NCBI GenBank assembly: GCA_030704615.1
Contig: CM060733.1
Span: 59,210,001-59,274,000 of the forward strand
DNA length: 64,000 bases
Origin: Takakia lepidozioides
Lineage: Eukaryota > Plantae > Bryophyta
Direction of reading: 5' to 3'
Both the position numbers and the translations under genes were made by a program. Positions 1 through 60,058 of the stretch are shown here, piece by piece. Below the pieces are notes generated by a model that had not been told where the DNA came from, did no database searches, and was given only the letters and a program-made list of their open reading frames with translations. Position 1 is the stretch's first letter. Every line of letters begins with the position of its first letter.

Positions 1-2660
1 AAAGGTACTTCAACATTACCCACTCAATATCAAGATTTCAAGGATATCTTTGAGAAGAAAAATGCAGACATATTGCCATAACATCGACCTTATGACTGTG
101 CAATTGAGTTACAAAAAGGAGCCCAACCACCATTCGGCCCAATCTATAACTTATCACAGACGGAGTTGGCTACATTACGTGAATACATTGATGAAAATTT
201 GTCGAAGAACTTCATCCGACATTCAAAATCGTCTGCGGGGGCGCCTATCTTGTTTGTGAAAAAGAATGAGGTATCATTATGCATGTGTGTGGACTATCGC
301 GGTCTCAACAAAGTCACAATCAATAATCGTTATTTGTTGCCGCTGATTTCTGGGCTTCTCGACCAACTGGGACGAGCGAAGATTTTCACCAAAATTGACT
401 TGAGATGAGCTTATAACCTTGTACGGATAAAAGAAGAAGAGGAATGGAAAACAGCTTTTCGAACAAGGTATGGACATTTTGAATACAGTGTTATGTCTTT
501 CGGTCTTACAAATGCTCCAGCAATTTTCCAACATATGATGAATGACATCTTTCGAGAATTTTTAGATGACTTTGTAGGCATCTATTTGGACGACATTTTG
601 ATATTTTCTCAGAATGAAGAAGAACATGGCCGCTATGTACGCCTTGTGCTTGATAAATTAAGAGAAAAATGACTATATGCCAAGTTGGAAAAATGTCTTT
701 TCCATCGATCTAAGGTCGAATTTCTGGGCTACATTATTTCCGACAAAGGCGTCTTTATGGATCAGAAGAAAATACAAACCGTCATCGAGTGGATTAAACC
801 AACTTATTTCCGAGATGTACAATGTTTTCTGGGATTTATAAATTTCTGTAGAATCTTCATCAATGACTACTCCAAATTGATGCACCATTGACACGACTCA
901 CAGGGAAGGACAAATTTGTATGGGACGAGAAGGCTGACCAAGCATTTGAAAGGTTGAAGCAGACATTTACAACGGCTCCAATACTGGTACATGCAAACCC
1001 ATCTAAACCATTCTTTTTGGAAGCAAATGCATCGGACTTTGCACTTGGCGTGGTACTCTCTCAATACGGTACAGATGGCCGACTGCACCCTGTTGGTTTT
1101 CGTTCTCGCAAATTTTCCACTGCGGATATCAATTATGAAATCCATGACAAAGAACTTCTAGCGATTATCGATGTTTTTGAGAAGTGGCGTCATCTATTGA
1201 AGAGAGCTAAACATCATGTCACTGTCTATACCGATCACAAAAACCTCGAGTATTTTATGAGTGCTCGTGTTTTGAATTGACGTCAAACGAGATGGAGTAT
1301 GTCACTAGCAAGGTTTGATTTTGTTATTACCTACCGTCCCGGACATCTTCAAGGAAAACCAGATGCTCTTTCTCGACGATCGTATCTTGCGCCAAAAGAA
1401 GGGGGATGCAGCTTTTGACCAACAAAAATCCATCATCTTGAAACCAGCAAATCTCCAATTGAATATGCTATCCATGTCCACCTATGACGATGCAGAGATC
1501 GTAAAGGAGATTTAGGAAGCACTGAAGAGCGACCAATTTGCTACGACACTACGAAGTCAACTAAATCGACCTCGAGACAACCCACATGTTACAAACGATT
1601 TCGAATTCAAAGATGGTTTACTTTATTTCAAGGGACTTCTCTATGTACCTCCAAGACCTACACGACTGCGAATTCTTCAAACATATCATGATCTTCCGGC
1701 TGCAGGACATTTCGGCTTCAACAAAACAATGGAATTGATATCCAGGGACTATTGGTGGCCGCAGATGTGGAAACTCGTGAAAGAATTTATAAAATCTTGC
1801 GACACGTGTGCTAGAGCGAAGGGACCACGACATCGACCTTATGACATTCTTCAACCATTACCCATTCCCAATGGTTCATGGTCCTCCGTGTCTATGGACT
1901 TTATTACGGACATTCCAATTTCCAAGACCACCGATTCAATCATTGTTATTGTAGATCGTTTTACGAAGATGACATTTCATTCCATGTATTAAGACGGTTA
2001 CCGGCGATGAAACTGCAAGACTCTTCCTCAATAATATCTACCGCATTCATGGACTCCCGAATGACATCCTATCTGATCGAGGACCACAGTTCATATCAAA
2101 TTTCTGGAGAGGATTATTTCACATATTGGATACTAAGATCAACCTCTCTACAGCTAATCATCCACAGACTGATAGTCAAACCGAACGTGTAAACCAGATT
2201 TTGGAGCAGTATCTTCGCTGTACGATAAATTATCACCAAGATAATTAGACGGACTTTATGTCATTGGCTGAGTTTGCCTACAACAACACTATACATTCTT
2301 CGACCAAACAAACTCCATTTTTCTCTAATTATGGTCATTATCCTCGAGCAAACCCTTTCCACATAAAGACTGTTGGAAGCCCTGCTGCAGAAAACATTGC
2401 TACTCGTCTCGCTACGATTCACAATGAGCTTACATTCCACCTCGCAGAAGGAGTATGCAGATCAACGTCGCCAACTCCAACCCCAGTTCAAGGTCGGAGA
2501 TCGTGTGTGGCTTCTTCGACGGGACATACAAACCTCACGACCATCAAAGAAGTTGGATTATCAACGCCTGGGACCATTCAAAATTATTCGACAAATAAAT
2601 CCGGTCAGTTTTCGGCTTGAACTACCACGAAGTATGCGCATCCATCCTTGTCAGCCAAGT
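1..2660 (+). pseudogene. pol: pol pseudogene: reverse transcriptase, RNase H, integrase
   Basis: [37 protein letters not shown] (about 583-594), ASDFALGVVLSQ, NYEIHDKELLAI, VYTDHKNL, H..GH/YWWP..C..C zinc-binding motif, SMDFI..VIVDRFTK, GPFKI. Several stops and frameshifts. Confidence 0.95.
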
Positions 2661-3250
2661 TAGCTTCAAGGTAAAGACTCCACATTCAATGTACCTGATA
2701 TACGCTAAGGAGAGAGGAGCATCACACATCAGTATATATAGCTACATTTCCAGCACTTCCAACACTCTTGCATCTTGTATTGGCAGTATGGAGTCACAGG
2801 AACCAGATACATTGGAGTTGTCGCTTACCCAGCTACCAGATCAGTCGTTCCAACTCTCACGATCTTCAACATCACGCCGACGATCTCGAGACGATGGGCC
2901 ACCAATGCGACGCGTACTTCCTCGTCTCGACCCCGTACGACGGCAAGTGGACCCTACTCGAAGTCTGATAATTCTGTTGGAGGTTGAGGTTGAGGCTTCG
3001 GATCCAGAGGGCAACGAAATCATGTTTGAAGGCAGCTTCGAAAATCAAAATGCTCAAATCACTGCGTGGTCCCAAGTTCAAGGTGTTGGACACTATTGAT
3101 GGTTGCAGGGACCTATAAATCATTTGAGTCAAGAACGAAGAGCCGAATACTTGGCAAGTACCATTCGTCGGATTTTGGATTTTCTCCAACTCTAAGCAAG
3201 TCCAAGATTTTACCGCTCCTCGAGGAACTCGGTGCTAGAGGAGGTGGTAA

Positions 3251-3872: not shown

Positions 3873-4664
3873 TTCTTGTCTATCTAGTTTGATCTCTTGT
3901 TTGTGTTCAGTCATGTTCTTGTCTTTGACATGTATATTATTTTTGTTTGGCCTGGTATGGTATGATATCAGTATTTCAATTTTCAAATCTGATACTAGGG
4001 GTATATCAATACTGATATCAATACTGTTATTTATTTATTTTTAAACTGAAAATAAAAATCTGTCCAAATTATACTGCTGAGGTGAGCACTTCAGCCGCTG
4101 AAGTGATCACCTCATGGGCTGAAGCGCTCACCTCAGCGGCTGAGTGCCGCAATTCATAATAACAAGGAGCGGGATCTCACCTTAGGTAATTTGAGGTTAC
4201 CTTACAAGCCTAAGTAGATTTTCGCCAAAAGCGCCATTTAGATCGTCTAAATCAAAGAGCCGCAACTCTCCATGCTGCACCCTAAATCCCTAACGCTCCA
4301 CATATTGATACCTAGGGTGCAAGCGACAGCGGTAGACATAGTAATGGTATCGACAAAGCTGTGTTTCTTGCGATACCAAGCCGGTCTGGTAGGAGCCCAG
4401 GTATTAGGGTTTCACTATATTGCCCCCAATATGTTCTCCTCGAGGTATTGTCAGTTGTTTATACCTGCCTGATCTGGTATCTTGCCGCGATACCCTTACC
4501 CGTGCTGATACCCCGCCTCACCCCCATATACCGGTCCAACACTGGTTATGACTGCCAACATGCGGTAGCCATGGGTTTCCTGACTTTGACAATGACTGCA
4601 CCATGTTTTTATATGAAATTGACCTCTTGCAGTCGTTCATGCGACTATAGTCATATGAACGACT

Positions 4665-4884
4665 TGTCGTGTGCATACATATCGCTACACAACTACATCG
4701 CTGTCCAAAACCACACTTCATATGTGCACACCAAACACTGGTCTATCACTAGTCCACCACTAGTACACCACTAGGCTGCCACTAGCCACCACTAGTGCAG
4801 CCACTAGTCCACCACTAGTACAGCCACTAGTCCAACCACTAAGCTGCCACTGGCCACCACTAGTGCAGCCACTAGTCCATCACA
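4665..4884 (-). repeat. Terminal repeat segment A1 (extra partial LTR)
   Basis: TGTCGT...CCATCACA; direct repeat of 5205-5324 with about 100 bp of additional CCACTAGT-based tandem units. Confidence 0.9.
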
Positions 4885-4885
4885 A

Positions 4886-5324
4886 TGATAAGGAAATGAA
4901 TGATACAAGCATACAAGCTCTCTCAAACTCACACACTTGCACATGAAAATATCACTCATATATTAAGTCGAGCCAAGTGCACCCCACGCCATGGGGAATC
5001 CACACTACGGCGCCATAGCTAGACGCGGTGAGGCTCAACTCGAGAAAGATGAGCCCACCGCGATCTGCCGTGAAGATAACAACGCCAGGTGCCCAAACAT
5101 GTATTGGCCCCTGGATTGACACTTGGGTCAATCCCAAATGTCAATATATAAAAGCTAGCTATTTCCTAGCTAACTTCACACCAGTGGTAAAATAACTTGA
5201 CAGCTGTCGTGCGCATACATATCGCTACACAACTACATCGCTGTCCAAAACCACACAACATATGTGCACACCAAACACTGGTCTATCACTAGTCCACCAC
5301 TAGTGCAGCCACTAGTCCATCACA
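4886..5324 (-). repeat. Complete 3' LTR (segments B1+A2)
   Basis: TGATAAGG...CCATCACA (TG..CA ends), abutting the PPT complement. B1 matches 12521-12841 with about 12 substitutions and one 4-bp indel by eye. Confidence 0.85.
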
Positions 5325-5336
5325 ATCACCCCCCTA
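5325..5336 (-). promoter_or_regulatory. Polypurine tract
   Basis: Minus strand reads TAGGGGGGTGAT immediately before the LTR start TGTGATGG. Confidence 0.75.
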
Positions 5337-5584
5337 GCTGGCGCTTAGGTCCATCTAAGTCTAGGTAGCCACAAGATGTGATAGTGGCCATAGCCTCACT
5401 AGGTCCTCCACCATTCTCCCTACTACACTCAAACTCAATAGATCAAGAGGCCGGGTACAAGAGTTGCCCCATCGTTAGTCGTCGTCTTGCAACCTGTGCA
5501 CTTGAGCCTGAGATCTTGGGTATTGACTCATATGAGCTTGGCCTCCCATGTCTTGTGAACTGCCATTAGTCATATCCACTGCCA

Positions 5585-5728
5585 CTATCCCAAGCAGTGT
5601 GGACATAACCAATCTCCATCAGGAACCCTCTCAAGAGGTGGTGTCAAACATCCCATGTGCCAACCTCTTGAGCATCGATCACACACCAGCATAGTGGCGG
5701 CACCACGAGCGTGCCCACATAGCATGCA
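5585..5728 (-). pseudogene. PHD finger at the integrase C-terminus
   Basis: CMLC..MLVCDRCSRGWHMGCLTPPLERVPDGDWLCPHC, a canonical C4HC3 PHD. Confidence 0.95.
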
Positions 5729-7119
5729 ACGCAACCCTGCAGGTACCACTGCAAGGTTGGGATCTATCCTCCCATCCACATATGGAAGGTGACATGGCGC
5801 ACAATTACGCATATGATGCTTCCATACCATGCCATCTCGACCCTCCAGAATCAACACTCCTGAAGGCAACACCTCCCTGACCCTTAGAATCACACGTCCT
5901 GCTGTGACATCCAAGGTCATAGGCGCTGTCTGCTGCAGATACACATAGTCCCCAGGGTGGAAATGCTGAACACCTGGCCGATATCCCCCTCCACGTATAG
6001 TGACATACCTCAATGTGTCTCGGTGTTGGGCAATAGCAAGATTCTCAAAAGCCATAGCATGACTCTCTTGAACAACTCTGCCCGTTGGGCACATGCTTGT
6101 GTCCACACATCCGGATCATCAAGGTTGAGGACTACTGCAGCCTCCTTGTGAATAGACGCAGGCAAATCTAGCTCTCGGCCAAAGAGAAGGAAATATGGTG
6201 AGAAGGAGGCAAGTGATGTTTGCTTGCTAAACCTGTAGCCCATGGCTAGCCAAAGTATCTGAAGATCCCAATCTCCTAGGTGTCCTTTTTGCAAACCATA
6301 CTTGCGCAAACTCCTCTTCACCGTCTGCACCACTCTATCTGCCAAGCCATCGGCCTCAAGATGATCCCGAGAAATGGTACGCTGGTCTATCAAGGCTTTA
6401 TCACACAAAGCCTGAAACTCCCCCAAGAACTCTCTCCCTTGGTCCGTGAGTACCTCAGCTGGAGCACCGAATCGGCTAAGCACACGATCCAGGAATGCAT
6501 ACGCAGCCCCCTCACTAGCCTTGTCAGGCAATGGAACCAACTCAATCCACTTGGAGAAGTGCTCCACCATCACCAACACATATCTGTGGTGACGCATTGT
6601 CAGTGGCAAAGGCCCTGCGAAGTCAAGACTCCACCTATAGCCCAATCCCATGATGGGTAAAGGATACAACTATGGTGTAGGGGCATTGAATGAAGCACGC
6701 ACCCTGTCACACACCATGCACCTAGCCACGAACTATTGCACATCTGTGTGCATACCACGCCACCAATACTGCCCCTGCAGTAAACTATGAGTGCATCGCA
6801 CTCCAAAATGCCCCAACTCCTCATGGGCATGCCGCACTAACCGTGCATGCTGTGTTGGGTGAGGCACGATCCTCACCCGACCATCCTCCCACACTCGAAC
6901 CCACTTGAACCTCTTGGCTCGTTGTAGGATCCGATCCCTCTCCTTGGCAGTCACACTAGCTGCCGTGTTTCCAGTGCGGAGGTAGTCCAACACAACCGAA
7001 TCCTCATGTATATCTCTAGCACCACCTGGCTCATCACTAGCCTCAGGGTCCTCAGACACTCCGTCTACAGTCATCACTGTTGTAGGTCCAACCTGACCTC
7101 CCGATGCCAAGATACACAA
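5729..7119 (-). pseudogene. Retroviral-type DDE integrase with HHCC zinc domain
   Basis: HAHEELGHFG..YWWRGM..C..C; WSLDFAGPLP, VMVEHFSKWIE, FGAPAEVLTDQGREF, ADGLADR. In-frame TAG stops at 6733 and 6670 and a frameshift near 6070. Confidence 0.93.
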
Positions 7120-7759
7120 AAAGGCAGATGCATGTCATCCCGGCACCATCTCCTTGTCCGTCTCACCATGCCACCGAGCTCTAGTGTCATCCTGCTGGTT
7201 CGTGCATGGATTGCAACTCAATCCAGCCGCATCCCTATTGACCAAACCCGGTCGATGCACAACCCGAACATGTCTCTCATGCTCCTCCACCGTAGCACGA
7301 GAGGCAAAGCAATTCCTGTAAGCCTCAGGAACCGCCGTATACGTCGTCTCTCTCCTCTAGTGACAATAGGTCCAATGTCAAGCTCCCAATTGCCCTTCGT
7401 AACTGTAACCTTAAGTCCAGCAGACTTAGAGGTAGAGGACGCGTCCCATGGTTGCTATGTCGCAACCTCTTGAGCAGTACTCCCTGCCTGCTTAGTCAAT
7501 GACAAGGCCTCATCCTGCCCCATCATCTCATCCTTGAGGACCTCCTCAACCCGAGAAGAATCCCCAACCTCATCCATCACAGCCGCCTTGGCTGCCAACT
7601 CCCTCTGAACCTCGAGCACCTCCCATGTGTGTCATGGATGTCTACACCACGTGGTCCTCACCGGCTCGCCCCCACTCACTGCCTGTACCGTCTCGGTAGA
7701 CAGAGAGACCGTCAAGGGAAGTGCACTCCGCACTCTTTGTTGCTCAGCCATAGCCAAGC

Positions 7760-8704
7760 TGATAATCCAGGTCAAGCAATTTAGATCCATTGCTTGCCCC
7801 AACACCTGACGACGTGATGCCTTAGAAAGAGAAGGCACCGTCGTGGTCCCAGTGGAAAAACCCATAGCCCGCTCTCGCTCGTCGGCATTAGGCTCCACTA
7901 ATTGCTGCAACTGAGCATCCCACAGGAGGCCAGGTCCATTATCCCGGAAAACATGCAATCCTGGGAAGCTGAGCAGTGTAGGTAGTGCTGCTCGTGGTTG
8001 ACCCACCTTGTTGACCACTGCCAAAGGCGAACGTCATCGTGTCTCACACGCTGAGACTGCCTCCCTGTGTCCAAAATGCTATCCGTTGTGAGATGTGCTG
8101 GCCGCTGCACCCCATCAAATGCACGCTTAAGCAGTGCGGGTGGCATCAAGTTAGTCCACCATAACCGTGGACGATGAGCCCATGACGCCACTGCACCTGC
8201 ATCCAGCAACACTGCTGACCCAAGCCACGACTGGACTTGATGCACACTGGCCATCACCCTGGCCTGAGAATCGCCCATCAGTGGCACATTCTCCAAGATG
8301 TATGCTGGAGATACAGCCTGATGAAGCTGTAAGTGACGCAAAACCCGCACCATCTCCCAAAACAGACCCAACCTCAAGTCTCGCAATCCATTGCCATGCC
8401 CAGCTGATGAATACCCTTGGCAGGGCCAACCTGCCACTACCAAATCAATGAAGCCAACCCGCTCCAAATCCTGCGCCCCCAGCAAAGAGATGTCTGCTGG
8501 CAAGGCCTGTTGATATCCACGAACCGCAGACACCGACAACAACTCAGGGTACTGCTACACCAACTGAGCAATATGACGGAGTGAGACGCGTCGTGCAGTC
8601 TCATCCTTCTCCACATACAAGTAACGCCGTACTCGTACACCTGCCTGTAGAACAACAGCTAATCCGGTGCTGATCCCGCCAAACAAGTCCAGAAGGCAAA
8701 TGCC
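7760..8704 (-). pseudogene. DNMT3-like C5-cytosine DNA methyltransferase domain within pol
   Basis: Motif I LLDLFGGISTG, II YLYVEKD, III DI, IV DLVVAGWPCQGYS, VI ILENV, VIII AHRPRLWWTNL, IX ERERAMGF, X RRQVLGQAMD, all in order. One TAG at 8555 and one frameshift near 8025. Confidence 0.93.
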
Positions 8705-9149
8705 TTCATCCGGACACGGCCACACAATCGGTGTGGTGTCCAATGGTGACAACTGAGGTGGTCCTGGTGCAATCCCCGCACTGTCCTCCTCTCCTGACGG
8801 TACATAAGCCTCTATCCAGGCTTGTTGCACACGACAATCAGCAACCCGCTGCAAATCCTTGCTCGAGCCCCACAATGGAGTGTGAGCAACCATGGTAGAC
8901 AACTCCACCATACCATACAAGTCATCCTGCTCTCCCGGAGGTGACACATCCTCCGAATGAGCGTTACCCTCTAGCAACTCTCCAGGGCAACTCACTGCAG
9001 CTGTGAATGCTGCCAGTGTTGGCATCTTGCCTCGTTGGGCAACCGCAACTTCTCCTATGAACGTCACAGGGAGCTGCACACGCCGGCCCTCCCCTAACTG
9101 CCATCCAGACCTATAGGAAGCTGACTCATCCCAAAAATCCAGGGTGAAG

Positions 9150-9463
9150 CCCATGGGGTACAACATTGCCCCACCAACAAGGACATCGTACGAGACCGCG
9201 TCTGTCACAATGGCCTTGGCTCTCATCACTGAGCCATCTGTAGGATGATCCGGCTGTAGTCTGATAGCCAACTCATGCCGTGTCATGCCCCAAGACTGCT
9301 CTGATCCTCCCAGAGATGTCTGTATCTGGAAAGGGCATGGCTCCATATCCGCCTCCGTGAGGCCCAAGCCTGCAATAGCAGCTCTGCCCAACATCAATGG
9401 CTGAGCTCCCGAGTCCAATAAGACTCGCAGTGGCCGGTACCTCTTGCCTGCCGGTCTACTCAA
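9150..9463 (-). pseudogene. Retropepsin aspartic protease
   Basis: RVLLDSGAQ catalytic motif and YDVLVGG (ILG-like) motif, in the same frame as the downstream DNMT. Confidence 0.85.
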
Positions 9464-10056
9464 ACAGAAAATACCATCCTAGTTGTCTAATATGACAACT
9501 CCAGGTGTCACCATGGCGCGCTCAATGGCTGGCCTAGCTGGCAGCTCCATCAACCTAGTAGCTGCAGCTTGCCATGGCGCCGCTGTGGCAGTCTTGACCC
9601 TCACATCCGAGGATCCCTCCGGCACTACACCTCCCACTATCTCCGCAGAAGATGAAGTAACCTCCCCACTCTCACAGAGTGTAGCTGCCAGCCTGAACAC
9701 CTCAGCTGGTCTTACCCCCGGCGTTGCAATCATGGTAGCCGAGAACAATGGAGCCTGGCACACAGCTGTGGCCGCCCCCAGCAGCATACTAGCTGCCGTA
9801 GCCTTGGCAACACTAGGTAGTGGTGCTGCCCGTGTAGCTCTCCCCAATGGCATAGTAACCTCCGCCTCGGTAACAGTCGGGCGAGAACTAGGTGCCATGG
9901 ACAGCGTCGACACTGTCTCCGCCAATGTGAATGACTGAGGAAGCCTGGCCTGACGGCTTACCTCCCCACGCTGTGGATCCAACTCCACCTTCGCACCCCG
10001 TGGCTCAGGAACTCGTGCTGCTCCTCGAGTCACTGCCGCAGCTGACTCCACTTGCA

Positions 10057-10740
10057 CTAGTGGTAGTCCTGCCCCGCACATAGTGGTAGTGGTGCCCCAC
10101 CCACAGTGGTAGTGGTAGTGGCACCTCTCACTAGTGGTAGTGGTGCCCCACCCATAATGGTAGTGGTAGTGGCACCCCTCACTAGTGGTAGTGCTGCCCC
10201 GCACATGAATCCCATGCCTCTCATGTCTCCTCCCTCAGGAGCAGGAGGTGGACCATCCAGCCTTGGAGCCGATACCACCTGAGCTGTGGCCATGGCAGCG
10301 AGCCTCTGCTCTAGCTGCTGAAGCCGGTTGGCCATGCCTTGGTCACCACCCTGACCTCCGCGTCCTTGGCCATGTTGAGCTTGCCCTTGGCCTGCACCTC
10401 GTGCCTGGCCACCTCGTCCTCTCTAGGCTGCTCCACCTCGCCCCCGGCCACCATTGTTCCCTTGGAACTGGCCTGGGCGCAACTCAGGATGCAAACCATA
10501 GCACTGGGCCTCTCCATGCCCGTACTTGCCACAATGCCCACACTGCAACTGTGCAGGTTGTGCCTGTGCCAAACCATTGCCTCCCTTTGGGCAATCCTTC
10601 TTGACATGGGGTCCTCCACATGTCCAGCACACCACATCCGCCCGTTGTTGGCTTACAAATGAAGGGAGAGACCCCTGCATCTGAGGTCCTCTCTGTTCTT
10701 CCCTGGGCTTCACTTGAGCCCCCTTGTTGCCTTGAGTACA
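10057..10740 (-). pseudogene. gag: gag C-terminus with two CCHC zinc knuckles
   Basis: CWTCGGPHVKKDC and CGHCGKYGHGEAQC, followed by an RG-rich segment and GAPLPLVRGATTTT repeats (10057-10200). Confidence 0.8.
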
Positions 10741-12504
10741 TTGAGGAAACTACGAGGAAGGGAAACTAGAGCAATGTCTATCCCAAGCACGCTCTCATCC
10801 CAACACCCTTTTTTTTCCTCTCTTCTCTCACTTGTATGACCATGAGAGCATCTTGTAGACACTCCTCAAACCGCCCTCTCATGAAACTTGGCCTCCAAGG
10901 CCCCATGCAAGCCTCCACAGGGTCCGCCAGTGCCTCCTTACGTCCACCAGCCATTCCTCCGAATGGAACCACCTCAGGAAACCACACCATTCGCTGAAGG
11001 TTCAAAAATGGAGCAAATAGAGGTATATATAGGCCCCAACAACATTCTGTCCAAAGGAATTATCTGCAGGCTGGTCTTCCCCATAGTTAAGAATTGGGCT
11101 GAAAACCCGAAAAGATTACCTGCAGGGAAGTAATCCCCTTTGTTAAAACGCAACAGGGAGGCAATTCCGACTTTTCTGCCGGATCAGCTAGCTCAAAACC
11201 GTTGTTCTTCAGAGCCCAGCCTCCCCATCAAGGTCCCACGAAACGAGTGAAAAAGATTTATTTATTTATTTATTTTTATTTTTTTTCACTCTAACTGTTC
11301 GCGGCCTTCCGTGGCTCCAACCGCCACGACTCCTCACGGCCCGCCCTAGGCACTCGTTGGCCACGGGCTGCCCAGTGATACCCCGTGGTACCACTCCCAC
11401 GAGCCTTCACGGCCCGCCATCCCCACGATCTGGTCACCGTACCCACCCGTTGTATCTGCACCACGACTTCCAACGGTCACGGTCAACCATCACGACCTGG
11501 GCTCGTGGTATCTTGTGATACCGCCCCAACGGTCCATCACGACCACTATTCCCTGTGATCCCTGGAACTCCCAACGAGTTCCCATGCGTTCCCGAGGCGT
11601 TCCCTGCGTTCCCACGCGTTCCCGAGCTGGGGTTTGATCCTGCACCTGCTGCCGACAAGCTATGGCTTCTGCGGAGCCATCAGCCCTGTTGCCCTGCACT
11701 CCTGAGCTCTCATGGCCCACTAGAAGTGCCTCCAACTCAACAAGCAAGCTATATGCTGCCCAACAAGCTCCATTTTCTTCATGAAGCTCACAAAAACAAA
11801 TCTGAAAATACACACCTTTACAAACTTGGTGCATCTGCACTTCTCATGCATCTCCCTTGGCTCTAGGGCACCTCGTTGCTGCCCTTCCAGCCCCGCTCTT
11901 GCTACTCCAAGAGCCCTTACACTGCTGAGTTTCAGATTGAAACTCCAACTCAACATATGTTTCACAAGTGCACTGATTTGCACACAAGAAAGACCAGCCC
12001 CCTCTCTTCACTCATACCTCTTCATGAGCTTGGAGCTGAAGCTCCCAACGGGCTGCGATGCATCTCCTCGCAGCTCCACCATTCGGCTACTCCTCATCTA
12101 CCCGCAACAACTGATTTCGAGCAGAAATACTTGGAGCTGATCATGTCATCTCCAACCTGCAACATGTTAGCTCCCATGCGCAGCCCACATTTCTGCAGCT
12201 CCTTAACTCGGCCTGCAGCTGAAGAAGACGACCACCAGTTCGCCCACTCGTGGCCAACATCTCCTCTGCTTCACACTAGAAGCCCAAACTTGGTTGCCAT
12301 AGCGTTGAGCTATGCAACGCCGCTCTTCAACATAGGCTACTCGCCTCTCTATCCATTGCAAACCTGCAACCTGTTCGTCTTTGTACTCTATCCACTTTGG
12401 ATAGGCTCATGCACGGATCCCTGCACTCTAGGCTGAACCGTTTTTCATGATCTGAAAACACAAGTGCTACACAACTAACTCGAACCTGGCACTCACAGAC
12501 TCGA

Positions 12505-12520
12505 GCTCATCTTTCTCGAG
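12505..12520 (-). promoter_or_regulatory. Self-complementary primer-binding site
   Basis: Plus-strand GCTCATCTTTCTCGAG adjoins the LTR and is the exact reverse complement of LTR positions 5039-5054. No TGG tRNA-type PBS. Confidence 0.75.
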
Positions 12521-12841
12521 TGATAAGGAAAGAAATGATACAAGCATACAAGCTCTCTCAAACTCACACACTTGCACATGAAAACATCACTCATATATTA
12601 AGTCGAGCCAAGTGCACCCCACGCCATGGGAAATCCACACTACGATGCAATAGCTAGACGTGGTGAGGCTCAACTCGAGAAAGAAAGATGAGCCCACCGC
12701 GATCTGCCGTGAAGATAACAACGCCAGGTGCCCAAACATGTATTGGCCCCTGGATTGACACTTGGATCAATCCCAAATATCAATATATAAAAGCTAGCCA
12801 TTTCCTAGCTAACTTCACACCAGTGGTAAAATAACTTAAGA
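12521..12841 (-). repeat. 5' terminal repeat, segment B2 only
   Basis: Direct repeat of 4886-5202; segment A does not follow. Confidence 0.9.
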
Positions 12842-13464
12842 GACTATCTAAGTAGTCGTCTGTATGACTACATGGCTCCGGAACGGGTGGAAGGCTAGTC
12901 AACGACAATTGACCAAATTTAGCTCACCACTCATAGTCATTTCCAAGACTACAGTGTACATGGATGAGGTTGCGTAGTCATGATGACTATTGGGGATTTT
13001 GTAATTTGGTGTCTATAATACAATTAAAACACCGTATGATCACATGAATGAGTAATGGGTGTATTGGTTCGCAGGTAGTGAACTATAAATTTTATAGCAA
13101 AGAGATAGGCTGCCACGTGGTTTTTTATTATTATAAAAATACATTATGCCACATGGCGCAATGCGGTGTGACACGACGTCTGAGTTTTTATTTATTTTTA
13201 AATAAATATTTTTGAATTTTTTGTTATTTTTTTAATCAATTGCGCCTCGTCACATTGCGCAGCAGTGGCGACTGCGGTATGGTATATTGACTGTAGTGAG
13301 AGATATCACTTAGTTCATCTGATTATAGTCATCCGGACCGTACCATCCCGTACTCATTGTATTTACTTGGTTTGCACGATTTACAATCATAGAAGTCATA
13401 TGTACCATTTATGACTGCAGAATAATCATATATACAGTAATAAATACTGCGGTCTGTTGTAGTG
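12842..13464. mobile_element. Probable CACTA-like non-autonomous element end (host of the DNMT element; left part about 4580-4664)
   Basis: GACTA/TAGTC subterminal motifs on both sides of the insertion; ends in TTGTAGTG (reverse complement CACTACAA). Confidence 0.4.
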
Positions 13465-28992: not shown

Positions 28993-30099
28993 CACCTGCG
29001 GCCATGAATAATTTAAAAATATATTAAAAAATTACATATGTTTTCTGATTGTACAGATTATAAAAAAGCAAGTGACTAACTCATTAGTAAATAAATACCA
29101 TACTGCAGTATCAGGTATGAAATAATAAATATATAGTGGCCGGTGCGGCCTGACCCACAAAATGATGATTCCGGTATGGACCATCCAAGAATAATAATCA
29201 TTGCACAAGCCCCCAGCTCACTAGCGAACATCCAAGACCTACCTTTCCATATTTTTACCTCCGCACTGACATCGGTTTAAGCGCAATTTAACCACATCCC
29301 GGAAGTGGCTCCTATTTACGCTAGCTTCGGCCGGAGTCTTCTCTCTCTCTCCAACCTCATTTCGGTCTTTAAAAAAAAAAATTAAAAGGGGAGGACGCCC
29401 TGTTATTCATATCAGTTAATTAAAAAATGAGGAATATTATTTAGCTGATGATGGGACCCAAGGGCTGTCCCCCAAATTCCCTCATGAGCCCCAGAAATGA
29501 TGGCCGGCTACCTATTTAATAATACACGGGAGCGGATGGACAGAGACTCGGGAATGGATGAATACTGTTCGCTGGTGGTCTTGATTGTAGCATGAGTAGG
29601 TTAGGTGGCAGTCCGACACAACCGGCGAGCGCGCGGGGCACGCCGCCTGCCGTCCGGTCGGACGGGACTGAACTCCGATCCCGATTGGCTCCGTTCCCCG
29701 TTCTGTCGCGATCTGTCGGGGCTTTTGGTGGTCCGGACAGAGGTGGATGAACTGGAGCCTCGGGATGAACGAAGAATGAGTCATAAATATGGACGGGCAG
29801 GCGGATGGATGGGCGGGATGGACGAACGAAAGGAGGTGGGGTGTGGATGAAGAAAGTTGGAGGGAGGGGATGTAACGGGTTCCGTTGCAGCCCATGATTG
29901 GGGTTGCTGTTACCCAAAATACTGCGCCCGCACTTTGTCGTTCAACCCTCGGTTGACTCAGTTATCCTAACAGCTCCCTGCCAGCTGTGCCCTCCACATT
30001 AACTTATTATTATTTTAATATTAATCCTATTATTATAGCATATATCCGGGGTACGCTGAGTGGGCACCAACGCCACTTATTATCTCCGCTCTATTCCTT

Positions 30100-31470
30100 C
30101 CCACCCAGGCGCACTGTTGGGAGCGGACGGAGTTGGCCGCACCGTTCGGCAGCCCTCAGGAATTTCCATCAACCAATGTCAGATGTAAGGCAAAAGCGGT
30201 CATATGTCCGTTCAAGTTGGGCCTCATCCGGAGTCCCCTATTGGGTGTTGAGCTTCGATACGGCATCAACGGCACTTACTAACACTCCGGCAACACTATA
30301 ACATATTCCCCTAACTCCGGCACACTGTCTAAGTTGGCGGCACCTTTCGGCAGCCCTCATGGTGGTGGTGAATTTTATAGCAACCAATGTCTGATGTAAG
30401 GCAAAAGCGGTCACATGTCCGTTCAACTTGGGCCTCATCCGGAGTCCCCTATTGGGAATTGAGCCTCAATATGACAACAACACACTTATTAACGCTCCGG
30501 CAACACTATAATATATTCCCCTAACTCCGGCACAAGGTCTAAGTTGGCGGCACCTTTCGGCAGCCCTCATGGTGGTGGTGAATTTTACAGCAACCAATGT
30601 CAGATGTAAGGCAAAAGCGGTCAAATGTCCGTTCAACTTGGGCCTCATCCGTAGTCCCCTATTGGGAATTGAGCTTTGATACGGCAACAATGCACTTATT
30701 AACACTCCGGCAACACTATAACATATTCCCCTAACTCCGGCCCACGTCTACATTGGTGGCACCTTTCGGCAGCCCTCATGGAGGTGGTGTATTTTACATC
30801 AACCAAATGTCAGATGTAAGGCAAAAGCGGTCAAATGTTGGGCCTCATCTGGAGTCCCCTAGAATTGAGCTTCGATATGGCAATCAACGCACTTCTTAAC
30901 ACTCAATAACATATTCCCCTAACACCGGCATACTGTTTAGGTTGGCCGCACCTTTCGGCAACCCTTACGGAGGTGGTGAGTTTTACATCAACCAAATGTC
31001 AGATGTAAGGCAAAAGTGGTCAATGAGTGAGCGACATTTCATTTCCTACATGTTCCGTTCAAGGGCCTCCTGACCCCCCTAGTCGGAATTGATGCGATAT
31101 GGCCACAACGGCACTTATTAATACTGCTGCAACACCATAAGATATTGCCTCCCACCAGGGCACGCAATCGAAAGCGGGTGGCCGCACCTTTCGGCAGCCC
31201 TCGTGGAGGTTGTGCATGTAACGCATCACGCAAAGCACATTCCATTTCATACATGTTCTTTCAAGTGCATCTGAGTCCCCTATTCGAATTGAGCATCGAT
31301 ACGGCAACAACGGCACTTGTTAATAATCCGGCAACACTGTAACATATTCCCCCAACCCGGGCACATCTGTCGAAGTGGGCGGAGTCGGCCACACCTTTCG
31401 GTGGCAAATTTACAATGTCGGATGTAAAGCAAAGCAATCACGCAACATTTCAAGCGCCTCCGGAGTCCCC
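30100..31470. repeat. Tandem repeat, about 210-bp unit, about 6.5 copies
   Basis: GGCCTCATCCGGAGTCCCCTA recurs at about 30219, 30431, 30641, 30841, 31063, 31270 and 31455; copies diverge toward the edges. Confidence 0.9.
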
Positions 31471-34529: not shown

Positions 34530-35450
34530 GTATCCCTTTGTATGAGAAGACGGATTTCATTGACACCAGACCGATCAGAATATCATGCGAACGGTCGGAG
34601 AATCCCTGTTCGTTCTCATGAAAAATTAAGGGATTGTCTTGGTTGCACAACAACCCGAATGGATAGTGTGGAAAATGCGTCGCTCTCCCTTTGAGTGAGA
34701 AGATGGATTTTGTCCATGCCACAATCTGACTAATGGATATACTATCGGAACGGTCGAAGAATCCTTCTCATAAAAATAAGGGGATTGTCTTGGTTACGGA
34801 ACAATCTGAATGCATAATATGAAGCGAAAGTGCTATCCGTCAATGCCACATTCTGACCAATGGATATACCATCAGAACGGTCGAAGAGTCCCTGTCCGTT
34901 CTCATGAAAATTAAGGGATTGTCTTGGTTGCGGAACAATATAAACGCATAGTGCCTTTTGAGTGAATTTTGTCAATGCCACAATCTGACTGATCGAAATA
35001 CCATCGAACCGGTCGAAGAATCCCCGTCCGTTCTCATAAAAATGAAGGGATGGTCTTGGTTGCAGAACAATCTGAATGCATAGTGCGGAAAAGGTGTCGC
35101 TCTCCCTTTTAGTGAGAAGACGGATTCTGTCCATGCCACAATCTGGCTAATGGATATACCATCGGAATGGTCGAAGAATTCCTCTCCGTTCTCATGACAA
35201 ATAAAGGAATTGTCTTGGTTGCGGAACAATCTGAATGCATAGTGCGGAAAATGTGTCGCTCTCCCTTTATATGAGAAGACAGATTTCTTCAACACTGCAA
35301 TCAGACCGATCAAAGAATCGATGTCCATTCTCAAGAAAATTAAGGGATTGTCGAAATACCATCGGAACGGTCGAAGAATCCCTGTCCATTCTCATAAAAA
35401 TGAAGTGACGGTCTTTGTTTGCGGAACAAATCTGAATGCATAATAACGAA
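34530..35450. repeat. Tandem repeat, about 120-155-bp unit, about 6-7 copies
   Basis: GAACGGTCGAAGAATCCC..TTCTCAT..AAGGGATTGTCTTGGTTGCGGAACAATCTGAATGCATA recurs. Confidence 0.9.
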
Positions 35451-42716: not shown

Positions 42717-44404
42717 CCCGGTTTTGGCTCTTGAGGTTGGTGGACCGCTCAGCTCAGATTCATCGCACAACGAAGAGAGTAGCTCTCAGTATGGGGTTGT
42801 TTGAAGTTTGAACGCCAATGGAACCTCTGCTGTAGGACGTTGATCTACACTTTTGCTTGTACTTTCTGCGGAGTCGTCTCCTGTTCCCCACATCGAACTC
42901 ATCATCCATTTTCCCAACCCACATGTTGGTGTTAGGCCTATCTCTGGCCTGCCCCCCATAAATTCATGGATTGTCCTTGAGAATTCAATCAAAACGTCGG
43001 ACTGCTTTCCCTCAAATCCATTGAAGGGGGACGTGGTTGTTTCCATGGAGATGATTACAAGGACTGCCCCTACATTAATCAAATCGAACCCATTGTACTT
43101 CCTTTCTATGAAGATCTAATAAATCACCCTGTCCAAGAGACTGATAGCTCTGGTCAAGAACACCGGTCTGCCTGATTGTTGCCCTAAAAAGCCTGAATGC
43201 ACCATCGGGTACTTCCAATAATCTCAACAGAATCCACTAGCTTCATGCCTAGCTTGTGGAGGGCTATCTTTGGCCCAAATCCAGAAAATAGCAGTAACAC
43301 ATTTCTGCCTTTGGGTACAGTTGTCGTAGCACGGAAAAGCGAATGGTTGTTCAATGGATGACTTCAGACCTATAACAGTTGTGGGCTTTTAACAGCCTCT
43401 CCACAATCAGATCAGATACTATAACCTGACAAGCGAACCACAGCTCTTCCAATTAGGTGTTCAATGATATGAGCTCAGCCATAGCTGAAATAGGCAGTTC
43501 CTGAATAGGTATACAGTGGGTGTGTGAAATTTGTATGGGGCTGGCTGCTATAACTACCTAGGACTTGGTACAGGTCAGAATCAGACTAAAAGACTAGGCT
43601 TCGTTGAAGCAAAGTTGATTCAGGCATTCAGCTACATTCCAGAACATCTTTGCATTGAACATAAGTACGTCATCTAGTTTCTCTGAGATGGGTGTAGGAA
43701 TGTTAAGGGCTGTCTACACGTCTACACCAGACTCGACCTTCTGGTGATCGTCTCTGTTTCAAATAGATCACTGTGCAAGTCTGATATTTCCTACCCCACG
43801 GTGTCGTTACAGTGACAAAGCGACGGTTTATGTTGCAGTGTGTCAGCAAGTTAGCTTGGATGATGGACGGTTTGCTTCTTCAGCGATTCTGTTTGACAGT
43901 ACCGAGCTATCCTACTATTCACCAAAATTCGTGCAAGCAAACCTAACTTCTCCCTCGATGATGCTAGGCCGTGTGATGGTGCCCCCACCTTGTCTTGCTC
44001 GATTTCTCTAAACGTTATTGGCCCTCGTTCGCTCATGGATTGCATACATGCTCGCTCCTGTGCGTATTCAATCATCTGAAAGTTGGAGAGGGTAAATAAG
44101 CTTAAAGCACTGCTAGGTTTCCCAAATGCTGAGAGGTGGGAAGCTTGGTCAAGGCACGCGCGTGTTGGAGGAGAATGCAGAAACTGTGAAGCAAACTGAG
44201 CCCCAGCAAGTAATCATCGCTCCTACCCGAGCCTCAGTTCATGAGAAATTGGTCTTACATCTCTCTCTCGTCGGGGGGCAGCTATGAGCATTTTAAACTG
44301 GAACCCCCAATTCCAGACTCTCTTTGGGCCCAGAAAATCTCTCTCTCTCTCTCTCTCCACTCTCACTCTCTTGCGCCCAAGCTGGGCTCGGCCACAGGGC
44401 TACG
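42717..44404. repeat. Left arm of a long inverted duplication (partner 58268-60058)
   Basis: Reverse-complement alignment by eye over more than 1 kb, roughly 85-90% identical with indels. Confidence 0.9.
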
Positions 44405-58267: not shown

Positions 58268-58312
58268 CGTAGCCTTGTGGCCGAGCCCAGCTTGGGCGCA
58301 AGAGAGCGAGAG

Positions 58313-58357
<45 letters not shown>

Positions 58358-60058
58358 CCCACCCATGTAAGACCAATTTCTCATGAACTGAGGCTCGGGT
58401 AGGAGCGACGATTACTTGCTGGGCAGTTTGCTTCACAGTTTCTGCATTCTCCTCCAGATGTAACGCGCGCGTCCCTTGACCAAGCTTCCCACCTCTCAGC
58501 TTTTGGAAACCTAGCAGTCCTTTAAGCTTATTTACCCTCTCCAACTTACAGATAATTGAATACGCACAGGGGCGAGCATGTATGCAATCCATGAGAGAAA
58601 GAGGGCCAACAATGTTGAGAGAAATCGAGCAAGACAATGTAGGGGCAACCATCACACGGCCTAGCATCATCGAGGGAGAAGTTAGGTTTGCTTGTACTAA
58701 CTTGCTGACAGACACTACAACATAATCCGTCGCTTTGTCACTGTAGCGACACGGGGTAGGAAATATCAGACTTGCACAGACATCTGACTTGAAACAGAGA
58801 CGATCACCAGAAGGTGGAGTCTGGTGTAGACAGCTCTTAACACTCCTACACCCATCTCAGAGAACGAGATGAGGTATTTCCGTTCTGGAATGTAGCTGAA
58901 AGCCTGAATCATCTTCGATTCAACGAAGCTTAGTCTTTTAGTCTGTGATTCTGCCTATACCAAGTCCTAGGTAATTATAGCAGCCAGCGCCATACAAATT
59001 TCACATACCCAGTGTATATGTATTCAGGAACTGCCTAGTTCAGCCCTGGCTGAGCTCATATCATTGAACACCTAATTGGAAGAGCTGTGCTTCGCTTGTC
59101 AGGTATTGTAGAGAGGCTGCTACGGGAACAGCGTTTTTTTAATGCGCGAAATTTCGACACTTTTCGATAAATTTACAAAGGAATTATGGGTTAAAATATG
59201 GCACTGTTTCGCATTACTGCCCTCCGTAATGCCACCATGTCGCTGCAATGAGGACGCCGCCTGTACAACTGTCGCACAGGGAAAGAGCCACATGCCATTT
59301 GGGTTCGTTAGATCCAGATGATCTTGCCTATCGATTTCTAGAAACCCTACCACCCTGCCACCGCAAGGAGCAAAGCCTTGGGTTCAAACTCTTCCCGCTT
59401 TCGCGAAGGGGTCGAACTATGGAGGGAACTCTCATTTAGGTTTCGCTTACCCGCCTAGTATCCGTGTCATGCACCTCCATTTAAGCAGACTTGCACCACC
59501 TCTTGCACTGGCACATGAGGCTTTGAGCAGAGTTGCTGATCTTGCACAAGATTAGTCATATTTGTCAATGGATTGTATCCATGTGACAGAGTTGTGCTAG
59601 GCTTTGCAAGATGCAGTGTCGTTGTTACTTAGAAAAAATTACCTCCTTTGTCGCTCCCACAAACCGAACAGTACATGAGTTGAGTTCGCGTAAAACTCAT
59701 CAAACATTCTTGACAGTAGCCACCGGTTCGAGATCACATGTCACAGAGTCGTTACCACTTCAACTTCCTTATAGGCCAGCCAAGAGCCAACGTGGCTCAA
59801 TTAAATGAAAAAAAAAACGCTGCTATGGAATATTTGTTTGTTATTGCCATGGACAAAAACCCACATCTGTTATCAGTCTAAAGTCATCCATTCAACAACC
59901 ATTCAGTTTTCAGTGCTACAGCAACTCTACACAAAGGCATAAATGTGTTACTACTACTGGATTTGGGCCAGAGATAGCCCTCCACCTGAGAGCTACTCAC
60001 TTCGACGAGCGATGAATCTGAGCTGAACGGTCCACCAACCTCACGAGTCAAAACCGGG
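58268..60058. repeat. Right arm of the inverted duplication
   Basis: Reverse complement of 43256-44404 and then 42717-42789; interrupted by an insertion at about 59120-59854. Confidence 0.9.
59120..59854. mobile_element. MITE-like insertion within the duplicated arm
   Basis: Absent from the partner arm (about 43390); subterminal inverted CAGCGTTTTTTT / AAAAAAACGCTG. Confidence 0.55.

Follow-up and report, generated by a model that had tools for sequence, protein, structure and literature searches.

We consider it reasonably likely that a PHD-tipped integrase tethers a Ty3/gypsy retrotransposon of Takakia lepidozioides to unmodified histone H3, and that the DNA methyltransferase (DNMT) of the same element, encoded before a likely leaky stop codon, acts separately on the element's own cDNA. 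The copy lies on the minus strand at 4665-12841 of the window, by which we mean the whole stretch of 64,000 nucleotides analysed here. It is a Ty3/gypsy element of the KnitGypsy-Dnmt3 type with split direct repeats and a DNMT3-like domain. New here are a probable readthrough stop that separates the writer from the reader and a second methyltransferase-like domain in chlorophyte relatives; Gypsy elements with a DNMT, Gypsy elements with a PHD finger and LTR elements with a reader plus a writer have each been published separately. From the 5' end of the element its features are as follows.

4661-4664 with partner 12842-12845, no strand: probable 4-bp target-site duplication, which presupposes a decayed 5' end
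12521-12841, minus strand: repeat A1, element 5' end with decayed terminal bases, 95% to A2
10500-10630, minus strand: two CCHC-type zinc knuckles of Gag, read from the translation
9075-9440, minus strand: aspartic protease with a DSG motif, from the sequence
7749-8707, minus strand: DNMT3-like C5 cytosine methyltransferase (Pfam PF00145, E 7.5e-12)
7449-7457, minus strand: in-frame stop separating DNMT from RT, context UAG-CAR-YYA, by conservation across loci and host runs
7138-7302, minus strand: remnant of the RNase H end, by tblastn of relatives
6106-6858, minus strand: integrase zinc-binding domain and rve core (Pfam PF17921, PF00665)
5795-5947, minus strand: SH3/Tudor-like barrel of five strands, forming the C-terminal domain of the integrase ahead of the PHD finger (DSSP strands, 46-96 of the model)
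5594-5728, minus strand: C4HC3 PHD finger that ends the Pol frame (Pfam PF00628, structure model, fold search)
5327-5335, minus strand: polypurine tract directly before B1, at the same place in 6 related loci
5205-5326, minus strand: repeat B1, ending in CA, by repeat comparison
4886-5202, minus strand: repeat A2, starting with TG, by repeat comparison
4665-4885, minus strand: repeat B2, element 3' end, ending in CA, with an internal tandem expansion, by repeat comparison

Along the minus strand the Gag zinc knuckles are followed by the protease, the DNMT (8707-7749), the RNase H remnant, the integrase (6858-6106) and the PHD finger, and the domain order in the branch to which the window copy belongs is Gag-PR-DNMT-stop-RT-RNaseH-IN-PHD. 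About 1.25 kb of RT and RNase H has been lost between 7268 and 7302; a contig of run X8 carries about 1.28 kb at this place. The integrase contains two stops, a substitution of the third catalytic acidic residue and a frameshift behind the core. Because of its several stops and frameshifts and the loss of RT and most of RNase H, the window copy makes no polyprotein itself; it is dead and RT-deleted. The ORF of the Gag zinc knuckles gave no match in a Pfam search, and the protease of the homologous locus L016 matches Asp_protease_2 below the cut-off. Short tandem repeats in Gag at 10075-10205 coincide with a frame change in the window copy.

The split direct repeats, arranged A1...B1-A2-B2, occur in the window and at six further loci (L002, L039, L029, L041, L044, L052), of which L002 and L039 are the same insertion. 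The repeats start with TG and finish with CA, and a purine tract lies ahead of them. Three independent insertions (L002/L039, L029, L052) of the five examined are flanked by 4-bp duplications, as is probably the window copy; at L041 and L044 a clear target-site duplication was looked for and not found. The TG...CA ends, the purine tract and the 4-bp duplications together indicate that a DDE integrase carries out the insertion. Membership in Ty3/gypsy follows from the order PR-RT-RNaseH-IN with a DDE integrase in the relatives, RT being deleted in the window copy; split repeats stand in the place of the two complete LTRs of this group and give the element the DIRS-like repeat structure of KnitGypsy. 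Identity with DIRS/Ngaro was rejected in view of the rve (DDE) integrase and the 4-bp duplications, which are not the marks of a tyrosine-recombinase element. Membership in Phygy, which has NCGN duplications and no extra domain, was rejected since the observed duplications are not NCGN. The Chromo domain that would mark a chromovirus is absent from the precomputed Pfam lists of the relatives. Where B1 meets A2 the sequence runs CA, two bases, TG, and with the purine tract preceding B1 this resembles a built-in two-LTR circle junction.

The nearest named relatives are found in Calypogeia, Riccia, Marchantia, Sphagnum and Coleochaete. In the DNA runs of the host the family is very abundant, with 43,436 matching contigs in one run (X1), and no relative of the element was found among the viral contigs searched. 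A look for RNA data sets containing 5330-9500 listed none, and run X8, which may be RNA, is not counted as a sign of expression. A word search with the DNMT region matched 4 proteins. One family member, P0403, is labelled as uncultured cyanobacterium and probably represents a plant contig that ended up in a bacterial bin. A further Ty3/gypsy element in the window, likewise decayed and with RT, RNase H and integrase, lies at 1-3250 of the plus strand; it is about 30% identical to the PHD/DNMT family and ends near a purine tract at about 3235-3250. Tandem arrays with units of about 210 and 130-160 bases occupy 30062-30995 and 34550-35408, and 42717-44404 forms a long inverted duplicate pair with 58268-60058.

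A preliminary description had recognized an intact C4HC3 PHD finger at the end of the integrase frame, and this identification is borne out. The complete finger (Cx2C, Cx2C, Hx2C, Cx2C) is translated from 5728-5594 of the minus strand, and directly behind it two codons are followed by a stop at 5587-5585. It matches PF00628 over the whole profile with an E value of 1.6e-10 and 41 bits against a cut-off of 24. In the AlphaFold model of the last 165 residues (alignment of 69 sequences, mean pLDDT 86.4) a helix, a five-strand barrel and the PHD finger form the C-terminal end, and the finger superimposes on the PHDs of ATXR5, BAZ2A and DPF2 with 0.6-1.3 Å over 46-49 columns. Zinc ligands, profile match and fold all identify a PHD finger. 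The barrel, which we take to be the gypsy GPY/F module, aligned in the fold search with the Tudor domains of Tudor-PHD entries, and the finger behind core and barrel occupies the C-terminal slot of the integrase that had been proposed for it. A frameshift near 6060-6080 cuts the PHD off from the integrase core in the window copy; in the relatives the two are in frame. A host PHD gene was rejected as the source, given that the sequence has no introns, sits within the element's repeats and is fused to integrase in relatives, and a chance cluster of cysteines was likewise rejected as the origin of the C4HC3 finger.

The earlier interpretation depended on conservation of the PHD finger across copies, and the finger is conserved. 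It was found by two queries that contained no PHD: with the integrase core in 84 of the 91 proteins that reach its position (120 listed of 263), most of the seven remaining proteins ending in apparently shifted frames, and with the DNMT in 24 of 26 proteins reaching that position (150 listed of 2005). A count of 104/120 obtained with a PHD-containing query was set aside as biased. At the DNA level, again with a query lacking the PHD, 64 of 69 testable loci carry it (80 kept of 556, many of the 80 being related copies or the same insertion and not independent events). The DNMT is present in 36 of 43 testable loci, with no upstream DNMT match in the other 7, and the co-occurrence of both domains, proposed earlier as a check, was observed in 26/35 testable loci. 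Between lineages the dN/dS of the PHD amounts to 0.16-0.37, at a pS of 0.58-0.66 and with dS close to saturation. Judged from these sequence comparisons, the PHD finger is a family trait under purifying selection.

A survey of 181 full C4HC3 fingers, from 217 examined, suggests what the PHD may read. The Asp after Cys3, part of the R2 pocket, is present in 174/181 and the Trp of PxGxW, part of the A1 pocket, in 171/181. The position of the aromatic-cage Trp, presumably two residues before the His, is occupied by Trp in none of the 181 fingers and by Gly in 170; an H3K4me3 reader of the ING/BPTF type was rejected on account of the missing cage Trp and the Gly in its place. The window finger retains, by alignment, the equivalents of KDM5A L309, D312, V330, P331, G333 and W335; the matching residues of KDM5A PHD1 have been described as binding H3 R2 and the H3 N-terminus (bioRxiv 10.1101/715474). 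The best solved matches are CHD4, PHD1 of KDM5A/B, PHF12, ATXR5 and PHF21A, and none of ING, BPTF and TAF3 is named among the best 60 of 82 solved matches. The finger is therefore likely to be a reader of the unmodified or free H3 N-terminus, of the KDM5-PHD1/ATXR5 type, and the earlier claim of H3-tail recognition is upheld at the level of residues, those of the R2 and A1 pockets being kept. A predicted complex of the PHD with an H3 tail scored 0.30 against a mark of 0.34, the tail being a viral-contig stand-in, with no alignment and with the controls not folded.

Recognition of lysine 4 is a separate matter. The acidic residue before Cys1 that K4me0 readers use occurs in 107 of the 181 fingers. 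It is absent from the window and its closest relatives, which lack an equivalent of KDM5A D315 as well, so that the K4 sensitivity may be weak. The fold and the A1/R2-pocket residues are common to the window finger and the PHDs of KDM5A/B (PHD1), ATXR5, PHF21A, BAZ2A and UHRF1; unlike these, the window finger, a predicted reader, is without the N-terminal acidic residue of the K4 pocket. The finger might then be a general nucleosome tether that binds H3 A1-R2 and is blind to K4, or have a structural or non-histone role, in which case it would raise the efficiency of insertion and choose no marks. The constancy of the A1/R2-pocket residues alone, next to a K4-pocket acidic residue that varies, is in keeping with this alternative, as is the occurrence among the matches of UHRF1-type PHDs, which have also been solved with an H3K4me3 peptide. 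We nevertheless hold it to be unlikely. Against it, a PHD-bearing gypsy element of Chlamydomonas, which may or may not belong to the window family, inserts 2.6-fold more often in intergenic DNA, a bias that selection could also explain (bioRxiv 10.1101/2022.06.16.496473, as far as its text was accessible).

The DNMT of the window retains motifs I, IV (PC), VI (ENV), VIII, IX and X, in what we assume to be the usual numbering, and is interrupted by a single stop and a single frameshift. Its homolog in L016 has its best solved matches in DNMT3A/B. Among 40 full DNMT domains of the family the catalytic Cys is present in 35 and EN in 39. The DNMT occupies either of two places, ahead of RT or between RNase H and IN; the second was seen in 28 of 59 long proteins, with a distance to IN of 116-148 residues in the six that were measured. 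The PHD is always behind IN. The window DNMT lies on the same side of RT as that of the Klebsormidium nitens protein P0158. When the KnitGypsy DNMT was expressed in yeast, no activity was observed, a result that its authors call inconclusive (PMC5890265). Two Marchantia gene models (P0002, P0003), annotated as host 'PHD proteins', are joined element fragments (DNMT, IN, PHD), which illustrates that intronless DNMT3 copies of the family can be mistaken for host genes in annotation.

Between DNMT and RT the frame is interrupted by a stop that reads UAG CAA CCA in the window (7457-7449). In L016 a Gag-PR-DNMT frame of 1,369 codons is followed by UAG CAG UUA and an RT-RNaseH-IN-PHD frame of 1,047 codons; the UAG is the sole stop in a frame of 2,417 codons, and there is no Met between it and the RT domain. 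A stop followed by CAR-YYN occupies the homologous site in 23/27 loci of the window branch as compared with 0/10 of the L044 branch, two further matches to the stop context that lay elsewhere being excluded from the count. The exact context is found in the window, L016, L028, L029, L031 and L038, three of them with UAA; in most L003-type loci the sequence is CAA CCC, which deviates from the CARYYA consensus by one base. As a background, CARYYA follows 24 of 12,927 TAGs, a count that includes the true sites. The stop is retained in four lineages with an integrase identity of 59-75%. In the host runs no variant of at least 2% was seen at 7449-7457 in 585, 236, 10 and 1 contigs, while positions 7448, 7460 and 7461 vary; among the stops listed, those at 9481 and 7634 are private to the window copy. 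Decay was thus rejected as the origin of the stop at 7457, which is fixed in the host family and kept in four lineages. The conserved stop also explains why 29 of 59 long proteins begin just before RT and why in three protein clusters 10, 7 and 6 of 15 listed members measure 1,031-1,044 aa and none is longer.

By its sequence context the stop at 7449-7457 is a probable programmed readthrough site. CAR-YYA drives readthrough in plants, with 6-10% in transgenic Arabidopsis according to the available part of the report (PMC2754532), and CARYYA is mentioned for gag-pol of retrotransposons (PMC3441728, likewise available in part). Stop codon and 3' hexamer are the same as in readthrough of the TMV type; in contrast to that and to gag-pol readthrough, the window stop lies behind protease and DNMT and not between Gag and protease. 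The stop might instead be a true one, and RT-RNaseH-IN-PHD would then be made by re-initiation or from a separate transcript, spliced or internal. In favour of this, L003-type loci have a Met three codons behind the stop and a context one base off the consensus. We think this improbable: L016 has no Met before the RT domain, the window has none directly behind the stop, and the reading frame and the CAR codon are preserved in four lineages. A true stop would leave the separation of DNMT and PHD unchanged.

No stop intervenes, and one ORF is formed, in the L044 group, in P0023/P0429, in K. nitens P0158 and in the chlorophyte type (Pleodorina, Hariotina, Haematococcus), the last with the DNMT between RNase H and IN. 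In these branches DNMT and IN-PHD could be joined. A quick integrase tree, with a long branch as outgroup, groups the layouts without settling the deep forks, and no root or donor is claimed. The earlier view that reader and writer are combined in one polyprotein consequently fails for the window branch, where the conserved stop lies between DNMT and RT, and may hold for the one-ORF forms of P0023/P0429, the L044 group and the chlorophyte type.

For the window branch we propose the following scheme. Most ribosomes would stop behind the DNMT and yield abundant Gag-PR-DNMT, which would be packaged in the particle; a minority would read through and yield RT and IN-PHD. In LTR elements Pol is processed by the protease, which would separate the domains here too. 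The DNMT would methylate the new cDNA, as de Mendoza et al. propose for DIRS elements in the accessible text (PMC5890265). The PHD would anchor the integration complex on nucleosomes in the manner of a chromodomain; as it would recognize H3 A1-R2 and has no cage for K4me3, insertions would tend to avoid promoters marked by H3K4me3. Reader and writer would serve one life cycle at two different steps. Because the conserved stop separates them, the DNMT is likely produced at the level of Gag and acts on particle cDNA, with the PHD travelling with the integrase.

The preliminary description had likened the arrangement to DNMT3 with its ADD domain. Developed into a mechanism, this would mean that the DNMT depends on the PHD for guidance or activation on chromatin, either in an uncleaved readthrough product or in a complex at the insertion site, and that the insertion and its flanks become methylated. 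The ADD domain is specific for unmodified H3, the type to which the finger belongs; the presence of both domains at most of the testable loci, the one-ORF forms P0023 and P0429 and the proteins with DNMT between RNase H and IN could also be cited in its support. In the window branch the analogy finds no support, as the stop and about 1,000 residues, RT and RNase H among them, intervene between DNMT and PHD. Moreover, each domain occurs alone, P0111 having a PHD and no DNMT, and P0334 having a DNMT of the same family before RT and, as judged by eye, a chromodomain-like end in place of the PHD. Since the PHD remains with the integrase while the DNMT changes position, and since each is found alone, coupling like that of ADD is less likely, and we give it only a slight chance, though it may apply to the chlorophyte type. 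Separate action of DNMT and PHD is the reading we prefer.

The chlorophyte-type proteins P0043, P0045, P0056, P0073, P0099 and others extend beyond the PHD with a module of Tudor/SH3-like type and a domain resembling Rossmann methyltransferases. Tails of at least 280 aa were seen in 60 proteins, 14 of which contain both DPFxG and TSPPF-like motifs. Structures that match the P0073 model include METTL5, type I restriction MTases, KsgA and Erm, and P0099 has a weak match to MethyltransfD12. The tail domain may be a 6mA/4mC enzyme that these elements have in addition to DNMT3 and PHD. A more far-reaching interpretation, which we put forward tentatively and with some doubt, is that a clade of split-repeat gypsy elements extends through the whole green lineage, with a constant PHD-tipped integrase and swapped writers. 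Its streptophyte branch would use a leaky stop of the TMV type for a particle-packaged DNMT that acts on cDNA, the PHD steering to nucleosomes with unmethylated H3K4; its chlorophyte branch would have DNMT3 beside the integrase and, behind the PHD, the Tudor-like module and an amino-type (6mA/4mC) methyltransferase, and would be a PHD version of EpiLTR.

Retrotransposons that carry a DNMT are known. If the stop behind the enzyme is indeed read through, the element invests in producing its methyltransferase at the level of the coat protein, and the likely use would be to methylate cDNA within the particle. The PHD would add a second type of reader to the chromodomain already known from integrases, and a family of this abundance may shape bryophyte genomes.

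Among known systems the closest is KnitGypsy-Dnmt3 of K. nitens, described as having DIRS-like repeats, Gypsy domains and Dnmt3 (de Mendoza et al. 2018, PMC5890265). As in the window element, a DNMT3-like domain among the Pol domains is combined with DIRS-like repeats, and the K. nitens proteins P0158 (DNMT-RT-RH-IN), P0126 and P0173 (IN-PHD) are direct matches of the window integrase with an identity of 49-58%; they may form one clade with the window element, the quick integrase tree leaving the deep forks unsettled. P0158 differs from the window branch in having no stop between DNMT and RT. The word 'PHD' has 0 occurrences in the text of PMC5890265, whose Fig. 4c may show one. KnitGypsy-Dnmt3 is presented there as an event in the K. 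nitens lineage, whereas the present matches come from liverworts, Sphagnum, Coleochaete, Closterium and chlorophytes. In the literature covered, with subscription journals, Repbase, theses, figures and bioRxiv supplements outside its scope, no description was found of the stop layout or of a PHD in Gypsy-DNMT3.

PHDs in retrotransposons have been published (PMC6673714, PMC8557442, bioRxiv 10.1101/2021.11.30.470311, by their accessible parts). For Gypsy-7a_cRei of Chlamydomonas reinhardtii, a Gypsy element whose Gag-Pol includes a PHD finger, LTR 'subparts' are described and a targeted insertion is proposed (bioRxiv 10.1101/2022.06.16.496473). The PHD finger in a Gypsy element is common to it and the window element, a likeness by description only, and the figure legend names no methyltransferase, unlike what is found in the window. 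Chromoviruses such as MAGGY are Ty3/gypsy elements with a chromodomain behind the integrase (PMC6673714, PMC6317226, in the sections available). In them, as in the window element, the C-terminal domain of the integrase is followed by a domain of a histone-reading type; the window element differs in having a PHD for the chromodomain and split repeats for paired LTRs, and its PHD is predicted to read unmodified H3 and not methylated H3K9. EpiLTRs of Cymbomonas and Euglena, with a chromodomain, DAM and a DNMT4-sister enzyme, are called distinct from streptophyte Gypsy-DNMT3 in the accessible text (bioRxiv 10.64898/2026.05.21.726589); like the window element, they bring a chromatin reader and DNA methyltransferases together in LTR elements.
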